A stretch of DNA of 41,471 bases from Oceanitalea stevensii (lineage in GTDB: Bacteria > Actinomycetota > Actinomycetes > Actinomycetales > Actinomycetaceae): positions 1 through 41,471 of the forward strand of contig NZ_JACSPO010000016.1 in NCBI RefSeq assembly GCF_014837105.1, read 5' to 3'. Below the pieces are notes generated by a model. That model saw only the letters and a list, made by a program, of their open reading frames with translations. It was not told the DNA's origin and searched no databases. This document shows, one piece after another, positions 16,840-28,053 of this stretch (positions within the stretch are counted from its first letter, which is position 1; each line of letters begins with the position of its first letter). The position numbers were made by a program, and so were the translations under genes.

Positions 16840-16916
16840 GGTGGGTGTAGCTCAGCTGGTAGAGCGCCGCGTTGTGGTCGCGGATGTCGCGGGTTCAAGT
16901 CCCGTCACTCACCCGG
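16840..16916 (+). tRNA. tRNA-His (anticodon GTG), with encoded G-1
   Basis: Acceptor stem gGTGGGTG/CACTCAC with one G.T pair; D-arm AGCTCAGCTGGTAGAGC; anticodon stem-loop CCGCG-TTGTGGT-CGCGG; T-arm GCGGG-TTCAAGT-CCCGT; discriminator C; no encoded CCA. Confidence 0.85.
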
Positions 16917-16920
16917 AGAG

Positions 16921-16950
16921 CGAGGCCCGGACCGACAGGTCCGGGCCTCG
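16921..16950 (+). terminator. Perfect 12-bp stem / 6-nt loop hairpin directly after tRNA-His
   Basis: CGAGGCCCGGAC-cgacag-GTCCGGGCCTCG. GC-rich intrinsic-terminator-like structure; there is no U-tract, which is common in high-GC actinobacteria. Confidence 0.55.
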
Positions 16951-16980
16951 CCCATTTCCCGCGGCCCCGGCAGCGCCTCC

Positions 16981-17440
16981 GGCCCCCGGCTCCCGCCTCC
17001 GGGCCCCAGCTCCCGCCTCCGGGCCCCAGCTCCCGCCTCGGGGCCCCAGCTCCCGCCTCCGGGCCCCAGCTCCCGCCTCCCCCGGTCCACGCTGCTGATG
17101 CTGATCCGCGCGGCGGATATACCAGCAGCGCGGACCGGTATCAGCAGCGGGGTCCGCCCGGCATCACCAGCGGGGTCCGCCCACCTCCCCGCCCCCGGCT
17201 CCCGCCTCCGGGGCGCCGGTTCCCGCCTCCGGGCCCCAGCCTCCGGGGCGCCGGCTCGCGCCTCCGGGGCGCCGGCTCCCGCCTCCCCCGGTCCACGCTG
17301 CTGATGCTGATCCGCGCGGCGGATATATCAGCAGCGCGGACCGGTATCAGCAGCGGGGCCCGACCGATATCAGCAGCGGGGTCCGCCCGGCAGCAGCGGG
17401 TCCGGTTCAGCAGCGAGGTCCGCGGGGGCGCGGACCGTAC
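16981..17440. repeat. Composite non-coding repeat array
   Basis: Five tandem copies of a 20-mer GGGCCCCAGCTCCCGCCTCC (16981-17080) are followed by a roughly 45-bp unit containing the inverted repeat GCTGCTGAT...ATCAGCAGC around a GATATATC core (17081-17160). The whole block recurs about 206 bp later in degenerate form (17190-17370). At least eight spaced copies of (AT)CAGCAGCGGGG lie in 17121-17420. Confidence 0.7.
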
Positions 17441-17449
17441 GATCACGCG

Positions 17450-18136
17450 GTGGACGACGATCTCGGCGCGGCGCGCGCGCTCCTCAGCACCCGGCGCCTC
17501 GTGGTGCTCGACCTCGACGGTCCCCTCACCCGGCTCCTGCCCGGCCAGGAGTACCTCCGCGTGACGGCCGGCGCTCTCGAGCTCGCCCTCTCGCTCGGGC
17601 TCGAGCCCGACGACGACCTCGGCACCGAGACCGACCACGTCCAGCTCCTGCGCCTCGTCGCCGAGCGGGACCCGGACGCCGGACGCGTCGTCGAGCGGTG
17701 GTGCACCGAGCGGGAGGTCGCGGCGGCGGCCGGCGCCCTGCTCGTTCCCGGGGCCGAGGCCTTCGTCGTCACGTGCCTCGACCGGGGTGCCGCCGTCGCC
17801 GTCGTCACGAACAACGCACCGGAGGCGGCGGCCGCCGTCCTCGCCACGGGTGGGCCGGTCCTCGCAGGGCTCCCGGTGCACGGGCGGGACCCGGAGCGGC
17901 CGGAGCACCTCAAGCCCTCCCCGCACCCGCTGCTGGCCGCGGCCGAAGGCGCCGGCGTGGCTCCCGCGGACGCCGTCATGGTCGGCGACTCGCCCAGCGA
18001 CGTCCACGCGGCGACGGCGGCCGGGATGCCGTGCATCGGCCTGTCCCCTGACTCCGGGCGGCGCGCGGAGCTGCGCGCCGTGGGCGCGGTCGCGGCGGCG
18101 CCGAACCTGGCCGTTCTGCGCCCCGGCCCCGTCTAG
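17450..18136 (+). CDS. HAD-superfamily hydrolase (subfamily IA phosphatase-like)
   Basis: GTG start at 17450. Motif I is VVLDLDGPLT, motif III-like is VVTNNAPE, motif IV is VMVGDSPSDVHAATAAGMPCIG. It is followed 40 bp later by the GCHII fusion gene on the same strand. Confidence 0.75.
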   Translation: MDDDLGAARALLSTRRLVVLDLDGPLTRLLPGQEYLRVTAGALELALSLGLEPDDDLGTETDHVQLLRLVAERDPDAGRVVERWCTEREVAAAAGALLVPGAEAFVVTCLDRGAAVAVVTNNAPEAAAAVLATGGPVLAGLPVHGRDPERPEHLKPSPHPLLAAAEGAGVAPADAVMVGDSPSDVHAATAAGMPCIGLSPDSGRRAELRAVGAVAAAPNLAVLRPGPV

Positions 18137-18176
18137 AGTGGCGAGGTCGCCAGACCGGTGCAGGAAGGATCAACCG

Positions 18177-19589
18177 ATGTCCCAGCTCGAGGAGCGTGCC
18201 GAACCCCTGGCCGCGCAGCCGCCCGCCGTCGTCGAGCGTGAGGTCGAGACCGTCCTGCCCACCCGGCACGGCGCCTTCCGGATGCTCGGCTTCCGTGACG
18301 TCACCGGCACCGAGCACGTCGCCCTGGTCATGGGGCTCACCGAGCCGGACCCGCTCGACGCGCCGCTCGTGCGGGTCCACTCCGAGTGCCTCACCGGTGA
18401 CGCCTTCGGCTCCTGGCGCTGCGACTGCGGCGAGCAGCTGGACGCCGCGCTGGCGGCGGTGGCCGCCGAGGGCGAGGGCGCCGTCGTCTACGTCCGGGGG
18501 CACGAGGGCCGCGGCATCGGTCTCCTCGAGAAGCTGCGCGCCTACGCCCTGCAGGACCTCGGCGCCGACACCGTCGACGCCAACCTCGCCCTCGGGCACA
18601 GCGCCGACGCCCGCAGCTACGACCAGTCCGCCGCGATCCTCCACGACCTCGGCGTGCACCGGATCCGCCTCCTGTCCTCCAACCCCGCCAAGGAGGAGGC
18701 CCTCAGCGCCCTGGGCGTCGACGTCGTCGAGCGGGTGAGCCTCATCGTCCCCGCCCACCCCGAGAACGAGGCGTACCTCGCGACCAAGCGCGAGCGCATG
18801 CGGCACGACCGCCCGCGCGCGGACGACGCCTGGGACGCCCTCCTGGGGGGTGCGGTTCCCGCCGTGACACCGGACGACCCCGCGCACGAGCTGGTGGAGC
18901 GCTACGGCCCGCTCGTCGCCCTCGGCTCCCACGCCGTCGTCGCCCAGCTCGGCCAGAGCCTGGACGGCTTCATCGCCTCGAGGACCGGTGACGCGGAGTT
19001 CGTCACCGGTGAGGAGGACCGCGAGCACCTGCACCGGCTGCGGGCGCTCGTGGACGCCGTCGTCGTCGGGGTCGGGACGGTCACCGCCGACGACTGCCGC
19101 CTCACCGTGCGCGCCGTCCCCGGCCACCACCCCGTCCGGGTGGTCCTCGACCCGCGTGCCCGCACGCCCCTCGCCTCCCACGTGCTCACCGACGGCGCGG
19201 CGCCGACCCTGTGGCTCGTCGGCCCCGGCGCCGTCGTGCCCGACGACCTCCCCGGCCACGTCCACGTCGTCCGCCTGGACGACGACGGCCCGGCGGCCCC
19301 GGCGCGCGTGCTCGAGCTGCTGCGCGAGCGCGGCCTGGGCCGGGTGCTCGTCGAGGGCGGGGGCCGCGTCGTCTCCGCCTTCCTCGACGCCGGCGTGCTC
19401 GACCGCCTCTTCCTCACGACGGCGCCGGTCCTCATCGGCGACGGCGTCCCCGGGGTCCGCTTCACCGGCTCCGACCTCCTCGCCGACGCCGTCCGCACCC
19501 GCACGCGCCGGTTCCTCCTGGGCGAGGACGTGTGCACCGAGCTGGACCTGCGGGCGCTGCGCTCAGCCCGGGCCGAGACCGCGCCGTAG
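18177..19589 (+). CDS. ribA: Bifunctional GTP cyclohydrolase II (RibA-like) fused to a RibD C-terminal-type (DHFR-fold) reductase domain
   Basis: ATG at 18177 follows AGGAAGGA. The N-terminal domain carries the GCHII zinc motif RVHSECLTGDAFGSWRCDCGEQL and GRGIGLLEKLRAYALQDLGADTVDAN, so the ring-opening Tyr is retained. The C-terminal roughly 230 aa match RibD_C/DHFR-like reductase (LDGFIA...VVVGVGTVTADD...RVLVEGGGRVVSAFLDAGVLDRLFLTTAPVLIGDG). No deaminase domain is present. The N-terminal extension in the track ORF is a frame artefact. Confidence 0.8.
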   Translation: MSQLEERAEPLAAQPPAVVEREVETVLPTRHGAFRMLGFRDVTGTEHVALVMGLTEPDPLDAPLVRVHSECLTGDAFGSWRCDCGEQLDAALAAVAAEGEGAVVYVRGHEGRGIGLLEKLRAYALQDLGADTVDANLALGHSADARSYDQSAAILHDLGVHRIRLLSSNPAKEEALSALGVDVVERVSLIVPAHPENEAYLATKRERMRHDRPRADDAWDALLGGAVPAVTPDDPAHELVERYGPLVALGSHAVVAQLGQSLDGFIASRTGDAEFVTGEEDREHLHRLRALVDAVVVGVGTVTADDCRLTVRAVPGHHPVRVVLDPRARTPLASHVLTDGAAPTLWLVGPGAVVPDDLPGHVHVVRLDDDGPAAPARVLELLRERGLGRVLVEGGGRVVSAFLDAGVLDRLFLTTAPVLIGDGVPGVRFTGSDLLADAVRTRTRRFLLGEDVCTELDLRALRSARAETAP

Positions 19590-20615
19590 GTCCGCCGCGG
19601 TGTCGGCCCACGTGCGCAGGTGCTGCCGGCGCGCGAGGGCGGCCGCGCGCCACGCCGCGCGCTGCTCCGTGTCGGTCAGCCACCGGCGCAGCACCCGCGC
19701 CCACGCGCCGGGGTCCGCGGGCGGCACGGCGGTGCCGGCCGCGTCGTCGGGCAGCGGCTCGGGCCGGCCGGTGAGGGCCTCGACGGCGCCGGTGCCCGCG
19801 GACACGACCGCGGGCACGCCGTGGGCGAGCGCCTCGGTGACGACGAGCCCGTAGGTCTCCACGAGCGAGGGGACGAGCAGCAGGTCGGTGCGCTGCCACA
19901 GCCCCTCGAGGGCGTCCCCGGTGACGACGCCGGGAAGCGACACCCGGTCCGCCAGCCCCACCGTGTCGAGCGCGCGGAGCAGGTGCTCGGCGACGGCGGG
20001 CTGGGCGGTGCCCGGACCCGCGAAGGTCGCCTGCCACGGCAGGTCGCGCACGGCGTCGAGCGCCGGGACGAGCCCGGCGTGGTTCTTCACCCGGGTGAGG
20101 GCGCCGAGCGCGAGGAGGTGCGGCGGGCGGCTACCTGCCGCGACCGCGGCGGGCTCGGCCCCGGGCTTGGCCACGAGGACGCCGGTCCGCCCGTAGCGGC
20201 GGGTGAGGTCCGCGGCCGCCCAGCGGCTCGTCGTGACGACGGCGGACGCGGCGTGGACGGTACGGGACTCCAGCGCGGCGAGCCGGTCCGCGTCCGCGCG
20301 CGGTAGTCCGAGCTCGGCCGGCAGCGGGAGGTGGACGAGGAGGACCACGCGCACGCCGGCGGCGACGGCGGCACTCACCTCCCCGGGGCAGGCACTGCCC
20401 ACGAGGCCGTCGAGCACGACGGTGCCGGACGTGCCCAGCGCCCCTCGCAGCGCCTCCCGCTCGGCCGGCCCGGGCCGCGGCCACGACCCCGGCAGGGCGA
20501 GCACCTCCACCGGCCCGTGCGCGGCCTGCCAGGCGCGGGCCAGGCACGCGTCGTAGACGTCGCCCCCGCTCGGCCCGTCCCCGCGCGCGGGGACGACGAA
20601 CCGCAGCGCCGGCAC
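19563..20615 (-). CDS. Glycosyltransferase, GT-B fold (GT4-like, group 1)
   Basis: 350 aa with the C-terminal EX7E motif ETYGLVVTEALAHGVPAV typical of retaining GT4 enzymes. Its 3' end overlaps the GCHII-fusion gene convergently by 27 bp. Confidence 0.8.
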   Translation of the reverse strand: MPALRFVVPARGDGPSGGDVYDACLARAWQAAHGPVEVLALPGSWPRPGPAEREALRGALGTSGTVVLDGLVGSACPGEVSAAVAAGVRVVLLVHLPLPAELGLPRADADRLAALESRTVHAASAVVTTSRWAAADLTRRYGRTGVLVAKPGAEPAAVAAGSRPPHLLALGALTRVKNHAGLVPALDAVRDLPWQATFAGPGTAQPAVAEHLLRALDTVGLADRVSLPGVVTGDALEGLWQRTDLLLVPSLVETYGLVVTEALAHGVPAVVSAGTGAVEALTGRPEPLPDDAAGTAVPPADPGAWARVLRRWLTDTEQRAAWRAAALARRQHLRTWADTAADLRRGLGPG

Positions 20616-20618
20616 CGG

Positions 20619-21005
20619 CTAGCTCCCGGGGAGCTCGAGTCGGTAGGTCGCCCAGGCGTCGGGGTGCTCGCGCAGCGTGACCTCCAGCGCCGTGTACGGG
20701 GTCATGTCCAGCCCCTCGGCGAGACGGTGGGCCACGTGCCGGGCCACGACCTCGGTGGTGGTGACGAGCCCCGCGAAGTCCTCGAGGTCGTCGAGGTTTC
20801 GGTAGCGCAGCGCGCCGGTGACCTCACCGAGCCGCTCGGTCGCCGCGCCGATGTCGATGACGACGCCGTGCTCGTCGAGCTCGGGGCGGAACCACGTCGC
20901 CTCGACGACGTAGGTGACGCCGTGCAGCCCCTGGGCGGGGCCGAAGAACGGGTCGGGCAGGCTGTGGGCGACCATCATGTGGTCGCGGACCGTCACGCTG
21001 AACAC
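20619..21005 (-). CDS. 6-pyruvoyl-tetrahydropterin synthase (PTPS/QueD, COG0720) fold protein, divergent subfamily
   Basis: 128 aa. MFSVTVRDHMMVAHSLP aligns to the QueD/PTPS N-terminus (first zinc-ligand His is present). The position equivalent to the CxxxHGH motif reads AQGLHGV, so the catalytic Cys and one zinc His are replaced. It is tightly packed between the GT and the dehydrogenase (gaps of 3 bp and 0 bp). Confidence 0.7.
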   Translation of the reverse strand: MFSVTVRDHMMVAHSLPDPFFGPAQGLHGVTYVVEATWFRPELDEHGVVIDIGAATERLGEVTGALRYRNLDDLEDFAGLVTTTEVVARHVAHRLAEGLDMTPYTALEVTLREHPDAWATYRLELPGS

Positions 21006-21980
21006 TCAGCTCTCCTCGGGGTAGCGGATGACGTGGCACAGGGCCGGGAGCCGGCCGGAGGCGATGTCCGCCATGGTCCCGGGCAGCTCGGCGAAGGCGC
21101 TGGCGCCGGTGAGGAGGGCGTCGAAGCGCGGGTCGCGCAGCGCGTCCAGGGCCACTCCCAGCCGGTCCGCGGTGGTGCGGCGGGCGCGGCGGGCGGCGCT
21201 GACGGCACCGACCTGGCTGGCGCGGACGGTGAGCCGACGGGCGTGGAAGGCCTCCCCCAGCGGGACGCGCGGCGCGTCGGTGCCGTACCACGACAGCTCG
21301 ACGACCTCCGCCTCCTCCCCGGCCAGCCGCAGGGCGGTGGCGAGGCCGGCCTCGCTCGCCGAGCAGTGCAGGACGACGTCGCAGTCCCCGGCGGCCTCCT
21401 CCGGGGTGACGAGCTCCAGCCCGAGGCGCGCGGCGAGCTCCCCACGGCGCGGGTCGACGTCCACCACCTGGAGCCGCCCGAGCGGGAAGCCGCCGAGCAG
21501 GGCGGCGACGGACGCGCCGATCATCCCCATGCCGACGACGGCGACCCTGTCGCCCAGCCGTGGGGCGGCGTCCCACAGGGCGTTGACGGCGGTCTCGACG
21601 GCGCCGGCGAGCAGGGCGCGCTCGGTGGGCACGTCGTCGGGCACGGGGACGACGGCGGTGGCGGGCACGACGTACCGCGTCTGGTGGGGGTACAGGCAGA
21701 ACACCCGCCGGCCGACCAGCTCCTCGGGGCCGGCGTCGACGACGCCGACGGAGAGGTAGCCGTACTTCACCGGGCCGGGCAGGTCGCCCTCCTGAAACGG
21801 GGCGCGCATGAGCGGGCGGACGGCCTCGGGCACCGCGTGGCGGTGGACGAGCGTCTCGGTGCCCCGGCTGATCGCCGAGGCCAGGGTGCGGACGAGCACC
21901 TCGCCGGGTCCGGGAGCGTCGAGGGACGTCTGCCGGAGCTGTCCCTCCTCGGGACCGACCGTCCAGTACGCCTCGACCAT
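21006..21980 (-). CDS. Zn-dependent medium-chain dehydrogenase/reductase (threonine/sorbitol-dehydrogenase-like)
   Basis: True start is an internal ATG at about 21978-21980 (MVEAYWTVGPEEGQL...). The GroES-like N-domain reads GEVLVRTLASAISRGTE. A Rossmann GxGxxG-like motif is VAVVGMGMIGASVAALL. The upstream part of the track ORF is an artefact. Confidence 0.8.
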   Translation of the reverse strand: MVEAYWTVGPEEGQLRQTSLDAPGPGEVLVRTLASAISRGTETLVHRHAVPEAVRPLMRAPFQEGDLPGPVKYGYLSVGVVDAGPEELVGRRVFCLYPHQTRYVVPATAVVPVPDDVPTERALLAGAVETAVNALWDAAPRLGDRVAVVGMGMIGASVAALLGGFPLGRLQVVDVDPRRGELAARLGLELVTPEEAAGDCDVVLHCSASEAGLATALRLAGEEAEVVELSWYGTDAPRVPLGEAFHARRLTVRASQVGAVSAARRARRTTADRLGVALDALRDPRFDALLTGASAFAELPGTMADIASGRLPALCHVIRYPEES

Positions 21981-22116
21981 CACGGGCCCATCCTGCCCGC
22001 CGGGCACGTGTCGACGCGAACGGGCACGCGCGCGCCGACGGGCGTCCCAGCACTTATGCTCACGCTGACCCAGGGGCGCGGGGAACCCGTGCCCGCGTGA
22101 ACGGAAGTGAGATCTC

Positions 22117-23067
22117 ATGGCCGGTGGCCTTGCTGCACTGCTCGACGACATCGCCGCCCTGGCCAAGATCGCCGCGGCCTCGGTCGACGACATCGGTGCC
22201 GCAGCGGGCCGCGCCAGCGCCAAGGCCGTGGGCGTCGTCATCGACGACACCGCGGTGACGCCGCGCTACGTCCACGGCTTCACCTCCAACCGCGAGCTGC
22301 CGATGATCCGGAAGATCGCGACCGGCTCCCTGCGCAACAAGCTCGTCTTCATCCTCCCGGCGATCCTGCTGCTCAGCCAGTTCCTCCCGTGGCTGCTCAC
22401 CCCGATCCTCATGGTCGGTGGTCTCTACCTCAGTTACGAGGGCGCGGAGAAGCTCTACGAGTACGTCACCGGGCACCACAAGGAGAAGACGGCGGCCCCC
22501 GCCGCCGCGAAGGGCGAGGACCACGAGAAGACGATGGTGAGCGGCGCGATCCGCACCGACTTCATCCTCTCCGCCGAGATCATGGTCATCGCGCTCAACG
22601 AGGTCGCCGACGAGCCGCTCCTCAACCGGGCGATCATCCTCGTCGTCGTGGCCCTGGGGATCACGGCGCTCGTCTACGGCGTCGTCGCGCTCATCGTTAA
22701 GATGGACGACATCGGCCTCAGCCTCGCGAAGCGGGACTCCGCCGGCTCCCAGAAGGTCGGCCGCCTCCTCGTCAAGGGGATGCCGAAGGTGCTCGCGGTG
22801 CTCTCCGTCGTCGGCGTCGTGGCGATGCTCTGGGTCGGTGGGCACATCCTGCTCGTCGGGGTCGACGACCTCGGCTGGCACGCGCCCTACGAGCTCGTCC
22901 ACCACCTCGAGGAGGCCGTGGCCGGTGGGCTCGGAGCGCTGAGCGGCTTCGTCACCTGGCTCGTCAACACGCTGTCCTCGGCGGTCGTCGGGCTCGTCGT
23001 GGGCGCCGTCGTCGTCGTCATCATGCACCTGGTCCCGCGCCGGAAGAAGGACGCCGCCGCCCACTGA
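22117..23067 (+). CDS. DUF808-family inner-membrane protein (YedI-like)
   Basis: The N-terminus MAGGLAALLDDIAALAKIAAASVDD...NRELPMIRKIATGSLRNKLVFILP is characteristic of the YedI/DUF808 family. There are several TM helices. Confidence 0.8.
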   Translation: MAGGLAALLDDIAALAKIAAASVDDIGAAAGRASAKAVGVVIDDTAVTPRYVHGFTSNRELPMIRKIATGSLRNKLVFILPAILLLSQFLPWLLTPILMVGGLYLSYEGAEKLYEYVTGHHKEKTAAPAAAKGEDHEKTMVSGAIRTDFILSAEIMVIALNEVADEPLLNRAIILVVVALGITALVYGVVALIVKMDDIGLSLAKRDSAGSQKVGRLLVKGMPKVLAVLSVVGVVAMLWVGGHILLVGVDDLGWHAPYELVHHLEEAVAGGLGALSGFVTWLVNTLSSAVVGLVVGAVVVVIMHLVPRRKKDAAAH

Positions 23068-27121: not shown

Positions 27122-27700
27122 TCAGCGGCGCCGGTCGTAGGTGAGCACGACGTTCCCGCCGGCGAAGGTCCGCACGTCCGTGAGCTCGACCTCGCTCGGG
27201 GCGAAGCCGGCTCCCTCGAGCATCGGGTGCCCGGCGCCGGCGACCACGGGGTAGACCTTGACGATGAACCGGTCGATCTCCGCCAGCAGCGCCCCGGCCA
27301 GCCGCGCACCGCCCGCGAGGTAGATGTCGAGCGGGGAGTCCTCGGCCTTGAGCCGGCGCACGAGCGCGACCGGGTCGTCACGGACGATGGTGACGTCGGG
27401 GTCCAGCTCCTCCTGCGTCGTCGAGACGACGTACTGGCGCAGGTGCGCGTACGGGCTGGTGACGCCCTCCCGCAGTCCCGGCTCGTAGGTCCGCCTGCCC
27501 ATGACGACGGTGTCGAAGCGCGTGTTCGGGCGGTCGGTGAGGCCGAGGTGCGCACGGCCGTGGCTGGGGATCGTGTCCGGGTACTCCTCCAGCATCCACG
27601 CGGTGTAGTCCTCCGGCTGCGGGTAGAAGTCGAACTCGTCGCTCGGGCCGGAGATCCGGCCGTCGAGCGAGACGGCGATGTAGTAGGTGAGGCGGCGCAC
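27122..27700 (-). CDS. Dihydrofolate-reductase-family (RibD C-terminal domain-like) reductase
   Basis: GTG start at 27698-27700, preceded by GGGGGAG. LTYYIAVSLDGRISGP...VVMGRRTYE...IYLAGGARLAGALL matches the RibD_C/YwjB-like DHFR family. The upstream part of the track ORF is an artefact. Confidence 0.75.
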   Translation of the reverse strand: MRRLTYYIAVSLDGRISGPSDEFDFYPQPEDYTAWMLEEYPDTIPSHGRAHLGLTDRPNTRFDTVVMGRRTYEPGLREGVTSPYAHLRQYVVSTTQEELDPDVTIVRDDPVALVRRLKAEDSPLDIYLAGGARLAGALLAEIDRFIVKVYPVVAGAGHPMLEGAGFAPSEVELTDVRTFAGGNVVLTYDRRR

Positions 27701-27828
27701 GGAGTCTCCCCCTGTCGGTGACGTCGGTTCGCGGCCATCCTGGCGGTGACGGCCCACCGCGCGCCAGGGAATACGCGAGGACGATGACGGCGGGCAGCCC
27801 CGCCGTCGTCGTCCTCGCGCCTCCCGGG

Positions 27829-28053
27829 CTACTTCTTCTGGACGGTGATCGACCACTCCGCGTCACCGATGCGGCGGTAGTCCGTCACCGGGTAGCCCTC
27901 CTGCGCGGCCCAGCGCGGGATGGCGTCGGTGGCCTGGGTGCAGTCGAAGTGGATGGTGAGGTGGTCGCCCTCGGGCAGGGCCGCGATGGCGTCCTTGGCC
28001 TCGACGAGCGGGAAGGGGCAGACCTGTCCGGAGGTCTGAAGGGTGATGGGCAC
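27829..28053 (-). CDS. TusA-like sulfurtransferase (YeeD/SirA family)
   Basis: 74 aa with a GTG start after GAAAGGA. It has the CPxP active-site motif (QVCPFPL). It lies immediately downstream of YeeE/YedE, as in tsuA-tsuB pairs. Confidence 0.7.
   Translation of the reverse strand: MPITLQTSGQVCPFPLVEAKDAIAALPEGDHLTIHFDCTQATDAIPRWAAQEGYPVTDYRRIGDAEWSITVQKK

Follow-up and report, generated by a model that had tools for sequence, protein, structure and literature searches.

A short-form PTPS-IV (SCO6650-type) gene cluster in Oceanitalea stevensii and a tentative pathway from GTP

The stretch of DNA considered here (hereafter the window) comprises 41,471 nucleotides of contig NZ_JACSPO010000016.1 of Oceanitalea stevensii (assembly GCF_014837105.1). 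Between positions 17450 and 21980 it carries five open reading frames (ORFs) which, according to their sequence and Pfam matches, encode six catalytic domains (Table 1). An earlier reading made from the letters alone (the sequence-only reading) had counted six genes at this place; the elements it described are all present, and the number of genes has to be lowered to five. Two of them lie on the plus strand and encode a HAD-IA family phosphatase (HAD) and a fusion of GTP cyclohydrolase II (GCH II) with a RibD_C reductase domain. The other three lie on the minus strand and encode, in the order of transcription, an MDR-fold NAD(P)-dependent oxidoreductase (DH), a PTPS-like T-fold protein of the PTPS-IV subfamily and a GT4 glycosyltransferase (GT). 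As judged from the encoded sequences, these five genes are almost certainly a short form of the conserved PTPS-IV (SCO6650-type) cluster.

Table 1. Positions of the cluster genes, their domains and other features of the window
Feature	Position	Strand	Length	Basis
HAD-IA family phosphatase (HAD)	17450-18136	+	228 aa	Pfam PF00702 2e-14, PF13419
GTP cyclohydrolase II::RibD_C reductase fusion	18177-19589	+	470 aa	Pfam PF00925 5e-63, PF01872 1.5e-37
N-terminal GCH II domain of the fusion	~18234-18737	+
C-terminal RibD_C domain of the fusion (pyrimidine reductase, DHFR-fold)	~18936-19454	+
GT4 glycosyltransferase (GT)	19563-20615	-	350 aa	Pfam PF13692 / PF00534 ~1e-19
PTPS-like T-fold protein, PTPS-IV subfamily	20619-21005	-	128 aa	Pfam PF01242 4.5e-24
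MDR-fold NAD(P)-dependent oxidoreductase (DH)	21006-21980	-	324 aa	weak ADH_zinc_N, 2-Hacid_dh_C and BchC-like matches
Longer ORF containing DH	21006-22250	-
Example of a long antisense ORF	20331-22100	+
tRNA-His	16841-16914
tRNA-His and G+C-rich tandem repeats (~420 bp) up to the HAD start	16841-17397
Second, stand-alone RibD_C-family gene	27125-27862	-		Pfam 1.3e-11

The genes are tightly packed. The stop codon of DH (TGA) is followed at 0 bp by the GTG start of the PTPS gene, whose own stop (TAG) is separated by 3 bp from the GTG start of GT, and these two junctions point to translational coupling of the three genes. The fusion and GT genes, with stops at 19589 and 19563, overlap tail to tail by 27 bp; the sequence-only reading had noted both the minimal gaps and this convergent overlap. 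On the plus strand, 40 bp separate the stop of HAD from the start of the fusion, an ATG at 18177 with a strong ribosome-binding site (AGGAAGGA) ahead of it. The DH frame is open further upstream, and its start was placed at the ATG at 21980. The G+C content around the cluster is 73-79%, and long ORFs of up to 589 aa run antisense over the real genes; between 17 and 22 kb these antisense ORFs are an artefact of the high G+C content and not genes. Scans for promoters and terminators were uninformative in this 75% G+C DNA.

The assignment to the PTPS-IV cluster is carried by the PTPS-like protein. When compared with the PDB by phmmer, its residues 1-122 matched structure 3D7J, the Streptomyces coelicolor protein SCO6650, with an E value of 2.9e-35, and the next match, a PTPS, stood at 2e-4. 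The two proteins are 55% identical, and the window protein is best regarded as the SCO6650 ortholog. It reads FFGPAQGLHGV, with the signature FGPAQ at the place where QueD has CxxxHGH; by comparison of these motifs, the catalytic Cys has become Ala and the last His Val, and two of the three former zinc His are kept. The motif AQGLHGV, devoid of the catalytic Cys and of one His, is present as quoted in the sequence-only reading. FGPAQ has been described as the typical signature of the COG0720 subfamily PTPS-IV (PMC5445326), a subfamily distinct from QueD and its CxxxHGH motif (PMC5041015). Two other assignments were rejected, namely QueD / PTPS-I, on account of the lost Cys and His and of a score of 32.7 bits against TIGR03367 (cut-off 89.25), and PTPS-II or PTPS-III, whose motifs CxxxxxHGH or ExxHGH (PMC5041015) are both missing from AQGLHGV. 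Both the motifs and the NCBIfam scores agree with the earlier statement that the protein is not an ordinary QueD or folate-bypass enzyme.

The gene neighbourhood points the same way. It was published in 2017 that the PTPS-IV neighbourhood contains PF00925 and PF01872 (PMC5445326), and both families are found in the window in the convergent fusion gene. What had been presented as a candidate cryptic pathway is thus the SCO6650-type PTPS-IV cluster, with its structure 3D7J and its published neighbourhood (PMC5445326); as a group of genes it had been noticed earlier, in Streptomyces, and so is no novelty. Structure 3D7J was deposited under the title 'Uncharacterized protein SCO6650', and a search of the literature on SCO6648-6655, PTPS-IV, COG0720 and 3D7J returned the naming of the subfamily and the neighbourhood report, and no product or function. 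Likewise, none of the five proteins is covered by a specific NCBIfam model (June 2026). On plasmids, the T-fold gene is labelled by NCBI as '6-carboxytetrahydropterin synthase' with a queuosine GO term, a label that is probably a mis-annotation.

PTPS-IV looks like an enzyme under selection and not like a relic, because the proteins remain 65-70% identical across orders and share many invariant polar residues. Indeed, an alignment of 11 diverse orthologs contained 38 invariant columns, in which the polar residues R7, D8, H14, S15, H28, T31, R40, D51, Y68, N70, D72, E85, E113 and W118 are found. Glu113, in our view the ring-binding Glu of the T-fold, is among the residues kept. The same alignment bears on another view of the protein, in which it would be a degenerate enzyme acting as a non-catalytic ligand-binding or scaffold subunit and the chemistry after the reductase would be done by DH and GT. 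The loss of the zinc site and of the Cys/Asp/His triad of active PTPS/QueD would suit such a subunit, and the paper on 3D7J is said to have detected no PTPS activity. This view is nevertheless highly improbable, considering the identity maintained across orders, the new set of invariant polar residues and the tight coupling with DH and GT, which is invariable. Among the representative proteins searched, four consist of two to three tandem PTPS-IV-like domains without any other Pfam domain (P0362, 855 aa; P0382, 824 aa; P0363, 488 aa; P0364, 375 aa) and could be of eukaryotic origin. Long PTPS-IV proteins were discarded as Rosetta-stone fusions, as they are tandem triple repeats or apparent DH read-throughs and provide no functional link.

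The cluster is widespread. A pattern scan with one genome per species gave at least 489 stretches encoding a PTPS-IV relative, and 472 representative protein clusters were assigned to PTPS-IV at E <= 1e-10. Eighty loci from many genera of Micrococcales, Propionibacteriales, Kineosporiaceae and others were taken for comparison, and genes were cross-tabulated over the 60 loci that offered at least 5-6 kb on both sides. Searches with the window proteins (tblastn) found DH-PTPS-GT in the same order and on the same strand in essentially every sufficiently long locus, and the GCHII::RibD_C fusion convergently downstream of it in most. DH and GT were each present in 59 of the 60 loci, RibD_C in 46, GCH II in 43 and HAD in nine (plus two with another type of HAD). 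As the sequence-only reading would require, the two units are co-conserved, in several actinobacterial orders and on an Agrobacterium plasmid, and make up a single functional module. Because the same set recurs in dozens of genomes, the five-gene arrangement is not due to chance.

Three additional genes separate the loci into two forms. Genes for a SAM-methyltransferase-like protein (37/60), a CDP-alcohol phosphatidyltransferase (30/60) and an LPG_synthase_TM flippase-like protein (24/60) co-vary, all three being present in 23 loci and none in 21, and they define a long and a short form of the cluster; a sulfatase-family membrane protein is encoded in five loci. Neither these three accessory genes nor a creatininase-family gene was found on the 41-kb contig, and the absence of all three makes the window a short form. 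HAD was found in 6 of the 23 short-form loci and 5 of the 37 long-form loci. In seven short-form loci (L001-L003, L006, L011, L025 and L030 of the comparison) its ortholog, with 36-88% identity, is the gene immediately preceding the fusion. As the gene keeps its place in all seven, with 36-40% identity in the distant ones, HAD is retained in short-form loci and not incidental.

The long form gives rise to an alternative reading by analogy with PgsA/PIP synthase and PimA, in which the cluster would build a GTP-derived head group of a lipid or envelope polymer: a polyol phosphate would be coupled to CDP-diacylglycerol and, after loss of the phosphate and addition of a sugar, flipped to the outside, and in O. 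stevensii the lipid-linking genes would be located elsewhere in the genome. The frequency of the phosphatidyltransferase and flippase-like genes, which co-vary with the methyltransferase although their position and strand vary, would be explained in this way, as would the presence of the same genes in Streptomyces, on a Microbacterium plasmid and on the Agrobacterium plasmid pAt (where the 'sulfatase' gene is also found) and of PimB' and PimA among the solved relatives of GT. However, the contig carries none of the three lipid-linking genes, and the 21 loci devoid of all three fit an optional add-on better than scattered genes. In addition, short forms tend to have HAD instead, and such a lipid was not found in the literature searched. 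A head group as the real purpose of the cluster is thus rather unlikely.

The cluster is a conserved, mobile and co-inherited module. The flanks with orn, DUF808 and nadE are common only to the window and the two closest Georgenia genomes, and since these housekeeping flanks are shared by no other locus the module moves as a unit. The orientation of the plus and minus units is mostly convergent; Streptomyces and Serinicoccus (L064) have both units in one direction, and Agrobacterium has them divergent or convergent. Twenty-one plasmid records of Actinomycetota and Proteobacteria contain the cluster, with hosts that include Streptomyces, Rhizobium, Methylosinus, Thiodictyon, Palleronia, Microbacterium and Agrobacterium. 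On the Microbacterium plasmid pSGAir0570_2 (L083, 59 kb), recombinase and Mu-transposase genes are found a few kilobases away from it. On the Agrobacterium plasmid pAt (L084) the set consists of a sulfatase, a flippase-like protein, a CDP-alcohol phosphatidyltransferase, ribA, a 'zinc-binding alcohol dehydrogenase', a '6-carboxytetrahydropterin synthase', a GT4, a SAM-methyltransferase and a RibD family protein; relatives of this 'sulfatase' gene were found by tblastn in 6 of 84 loci.

At the protein level, PTPS-IV of the window shows 67-69% identity to its counterparts in Ornithinimicrobium and in several metagenome-assembled genomes (L059, L068, L073, L076). Identity to those of other Georgenia (L003, L013, L040) is only 59-62%, and the genes that flank the cluster in the window are absent there. 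This closer relationship to Ornithinimicrobium and the assembled genomes than to other Georgenia, together with the unshared flanks, suggests horizontal transfer of the module within the Micrococcales. The HAD start is preceded by a tRNA-His gene and then by tandem repeats made of 20-23-bp units and of a 206-bp unit repeated twice with 89% identity; the position of the cluster directly 3' of the tRNA-His gene could mark an insertion site.

Concerning the plus-strand unit, the GCH II domain scored 224.5 bits against the ribA model TIGR00505 (NCBIfam cut-off 205.85) and matched RibBA (4i14) in the PDB at 2e-66. The three zinc Cys, the active-site Tyr and the Arg of GCH II are kept in the window and in 49 of 49 fused orthologs; the Tyr and Arg correspond to Tyr105 and Arg128 of the E. 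coli enzyme. Because these residues are kept and the ribA cut-off is passed, the active site is by sequence complete and canonical, and the domain should yield the normal product, 2,5-diamino-6-ribosylamino-4(3H)-pyrimidinone 5'-phosphate (DARPP). The best solved match of the RibD_C domain is a DARPP reductase (6p8c, 1e-26), and its score against the archaeal reductase model TIGR01508 is 103 bits for a cut-off of 186. No deaminase domain was found in the fusion with Pfam and NCBIfam; with 94 bits against TIGR00326 (cut-off 156) it is not a bifunctional RibD, and the conserved cluster genes, in the window as in the relatives examined, did not include a deaminase. In HAD, motifs I to IV were recognised on reading as DLDGPLT, VVTNN, the K of HLKPSP and GDSPSDV, and its NCBIfam matches are phosphoglycolate-phosphatase-like and all below threshold. 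Two further RibD_C genes deserve mention: the stand-alone gene of the window, about 5 kb from the cluster, and a putative stand-alone RibD_C-type gene beside DH-PTPS-GT in an Arthrobacter locus (L061, 8013-8672), the latter judged by its N-terminal sequence alone.

The surroundings of the cluster provide no link with a known pathway. Genes for oligoribonuclease and tRNA-His flank it on one side, and genes for DUF808, NAD synthase and an NmrA/DUF2867 protein on the other, all within about 5 kb. Among these neighbours Pfam and NCBIfam found no folate, queuosine or riboflavin gene, in agreement with the sequence-only reading; in particular, the Pfam analysis of the flanks placed no queC, queE or queF next to the PTPS gene, and no ribB, ribH, ribE or deaminase gene in the flanks examined. 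No riboswitch was present in the window either, where Rfam at gathering and relaxed thresholds gave three tRNAs and two chance miRNA-like matches. An ordinary riboflavin operon was therefore rejected, the other rib genes and the FMN riboswitch being absent from the window region.

These data also bear on the possibility that the two units are coincidental neighbours, HAD and the fusion being an auxiliary or archaeal-type supply for riboflavin or F420 and DH-PTPS-GT an unrelated sugar or envelope operon. GCH II and RibD_C are indeed riboflavin-pathway families, the dephosphorylation in riboflavin synthesis is carried out by HAD phosphatases, and some loci have DH-PTPS-GT without GCHII/RibD_C nearby. 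A remark in print also connects PTPS-IV with F420 (PMC5041015). However, the units co-occur in 43-46 of the 60 loci in varied orientations and are found together on plasmids, the genes and riboswitch expected of a riboflavin supply were not found in the window region, and a T-fold protein with a ring-binding Glu suits a guanine-derived substrate. Mere coincidence is thus very unlikely, and in the following the five genes are considered as one functional set.

The predicted structure of DH (AF2; pLDDT 88, pTM 0.86) is closest, by Foldseek, to MDRs acting on secondary alcohols and polyols (TM 0.74-0.79, 16-21% identity), the nearest folds being the (S)-DHPS dehydrogenase HpsP (8wwd) and butanediol, threonine, sorbitol, xylitol and idonate dehydrogenases. 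The sequence-only reading had called this enzyme Zn-dependent, which the sequence does not support: the positions of the catalytic zinc ligands, placed by motif and not by alignment, read Ser38, Tyr75 and Leu76, the Cys-rich lobe of the structural zinc is absent (one Cys within the first 100 residues) and the match to ADH_zinc_N is below the Pfam cut-off. Residues S38, R39, G40, E42, Y73, Y75 and H99 are invariant in the family. DH thus appears to be a GroES-like plus Rossmann MDR without zinc ligands.

GT belongs to the GT-B fold, retaining type, and has the E-x7-E motif, with E253 and E261 invariant in the family alignment. The family profile matched in the PDB the sucrose-phosphate synthase (SPS) Tll1590 at 4e-27 and MshA at 7e-27 (97-98 bits), followed at a lower level by PimB' (2e-15) and also by PimA. 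BGluT came about rank 25, with 38.7 bits and an E value of 5.5e-9. Membership of the BGluT/PgtA group was therefore rejected on these scores, and the comparison with pteridine glycosyltransferases that the sequence-only reading had proposed points to a generic GT4. The same reading had named a grouping with cell-wall or mycothiol-type GT4 enzymes as an outcome that would speak against it; this is partly the case, MshA being among the top matches, although GT is not an MshA, as it scores 47.4 bits against TIGR03449, far below the cut-off of 462.5.

By their sequences, all five proteins keep plausible catalytic motifs, and the cluster may constitute a dedicated small-molecule pathway from GTP. 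We propose the following chemistry tentatively, as a possibility somewhat short of an even chance when taken as a whole and much less probable for any single late step. The GCH II domain would open GTP to DARPP, and the RibD_C reductase would convert DARPP directly to 2,5-diamino-6-ribitylamino-4(3H)-pyrimidinone 5'-phosphate, as in the archaeal/fungal route. The 2-amino-4-oxo face that is bound by T-fold proteins would be kept in this ribityl intermediate, which could then be remodelled by the zinc-less, polyol-dehydrogenase-like DH together with the zinc-less PTPS-IV. Our preferred guess for DH is that it oxidises one of the secondary hydroxyls on the ribityl chain. If C2' were oxidised, the 5-amino group could close onto C2' to give a pterin resembling 7,8-dihydroneopterin phosphate, and redox chemistry would in effect replace the Amadori step of GTP cyclohydrolase I. 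By analogy with SPS and MshA, GT would put a sugar on the still-phosphorylated intermediate and HAD would take off the phosphate afterwards, as in the SPS/SPP and MshA schemes; the product of SPS is dephosphorylated by a HAD enzyme. We place glycosylation before dephosphorylation because the nearest solved relatives of GT use phosphorylated acceptors. In O. stevensii the pathway would end in a soluble aminopyrimidine or pterin that carries a sugar.

In the long form, the methyltransferase, phosphatidyltransferase and flippase-like protein would probably methylate, lipid-link and export the product. Since most relatives carry these genes, the full or ancestral pathway is probably tied to a membrane lipid. 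The pteridine-glycoside logic of the sequence-only reading remains reasonable insofar as it combines a GTP-derived pyrimidine or pterin with a sugar transferase; its analogy with soluble glycosides misses the lipid-linked long form. The most specific version of the scheme, a GTP-to-pterin route free of GTP cyclohydrolase I, in which RibD_C reduces C1' of the ribosylamine, DH re-oxidises C2' as a redox counterpart of the Amadori rearrangement, and PTPS-IV promotes the closure before glycosylation and dephosphorylation, and which leads in the long form, through methylation, attachment to a phospholipid and flipping, to a lipid-anchored pterin or aminopyrimidine glycoside, is speculative and appears quite unlikely.

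Several observations weigh against the proposed pathway. The zinc site of every similar polyol dehydrogenase is missing from DH, and reduction of a C=C or C=N bond, as in other MDRs without zinc, could be its role instead. The likeness of GT to SPS and MshA is partial (profile positions ~100-338), and the acceptor cannot be read from it. Seven of the 23 short-form loci consist of DH-PTPS-GT alone, GCHII/RibD_C being absent from their flanks up to 10 kb. The Streptomyces cluster has no RibD_C gene, so that the ribityl reduction may not be universal, and RibD_C could have a later role, such as the DHFR-like reduction of a pterin. Finally, an unpublished remark in a review places PTPS-IV in archaeal F420 synthesis (PMC5041015), a role that is not readily reconciled with a glycoside pathway.

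Solving the cluster would add a branch to GTP-derived metabolism beside folate, riboflavin, queuosine, molybdopterin and biopterin, and would give functions to proteins now routinely mis-annotated as '6-carboxytetrahydropterin synthase', 'zinc-binding alcohol dehydrogenase' and 'RibD family protein', in a cluster that extends across Actinomycetota and plasmids of Proteobacteria with the hundreds of relatives scanned here. If the most specific version of our scheme were true, the lipid-anchored pterin or aminopyrimidine glycoside of the long form would be a previously unknown compound. The five-gene short form, free of membrane-protein genes, is a convenient minimal version for heterologous expression, and the division into short and long forms provides a testable hypothesis that separates the steps making the core molecule from those attaching it to the membrane.

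Compared with known systems, the window recalls the pteridine-glycoside pathways of cyanobacteria and Chlorobium (GTP cyclohydrolase I, PTPS-II, sepiapterin reductase and BGluT/PgtA) by its combination of a GTP-opening enzyme, a PTPS fold, a reductase and a GT-B glycosyltransferase. It differs by having GCH II in place of GTP cyclohydrolase I, a PTPS without zinc and catalytic triad, an MDR or RibD_C reductase and not an SDR, a GT that is not BGluT-like, and relatives with lipid-linking genes. With the archaeal/fungal route to riboflavin and F420 (ArfA/ArfB/ArfC; yeast Rib7) it shares the opening of the GTP ring followed by a RibD_C-type reductase without a prior deaminase. Unlike that route, it has no linked deaminase, lumazine synthase, riboflavin synthase or Fo synthase, its reductase is below the equivalog cut-off, and the linked genes encode a T-fold protein, an MDR oxidoreductase and a GT4.

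The pairs formed by SPS and its phosphatase (GT4 and HAD) and by MshA/MshA2 resemble the window in the relatives of GT, the co-encoded HAD and the presumed polyol 5'-phosphate substrate, whereas GT falls far below the MshA model cut-off and its likeness to SPS/MshA does not show which acceptor is used. The biosynthesis of phosphatidylinositol and its mannosides (PI/PIM; PgsA1, phosphatase, PimA/PimB') resembles the long form, which combines a phosphatidyltransferase with a PimB'/PimA-related GT4 and sometimes a phosphatase. The window departs from it in the absence of a phosphatidyltransferase and in a precursor that would be derived from GTP and not from inositol phosphate, and the comparison is inferential.

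The closest system is the SCO6650-SCO6655 cluster of S. coelicolor, which shares with the window the orthologous PTPS with FGPAQ and without the Cys and His, the order DH-PTPS-GT4 and a GCH II gene. In the Streptomyces locus that we compared (PTPS 98% identical to SCO6650), the order is CDP-alcohol phosphatidyltransferase, DH, PTPS, GT4, methyltransferase-like, LPG_synthase_TM, a creatininase-family protein (PF02633, 227 bits) and a GCH II of 229 aa, with Met at the place of the active-site Tyr (KLRAMALQ; L081 14119-15608, L082). Spoonamore and Bandarian reportedly observed in 2008 that SCO6655 halts at a formylated intermediate owing to this Met substitution. The creatininase-family protein, which scored 38 bits against the ArfB model, would by analogy with ArfB act as the deformylase that completes the GCH II reaction, and the Streptomyces variant thereby recalls ArfA and ArfB with their formyl intermediate and creatininase-family deformylase. 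Streptomyces thus differs from the window by an unfused Met-type GCH II, the creatininase-family gene, the lack of RibD_C in the locus examined, no HAD called, the added methyltransferase-like, phosphatidyltransferase and LPG_synthase_TM genes and a mostly co-directional arrangement, whereas in the window a Tyr-type GCH II is joined to RibD_C in one protein, HAD is present and the units are convergent. From their sequences, the Met-type GCH II with its creatininase-family partner and the Tyr-type fusion look like alternative routes to the same diaminopyrimidine intermediate.

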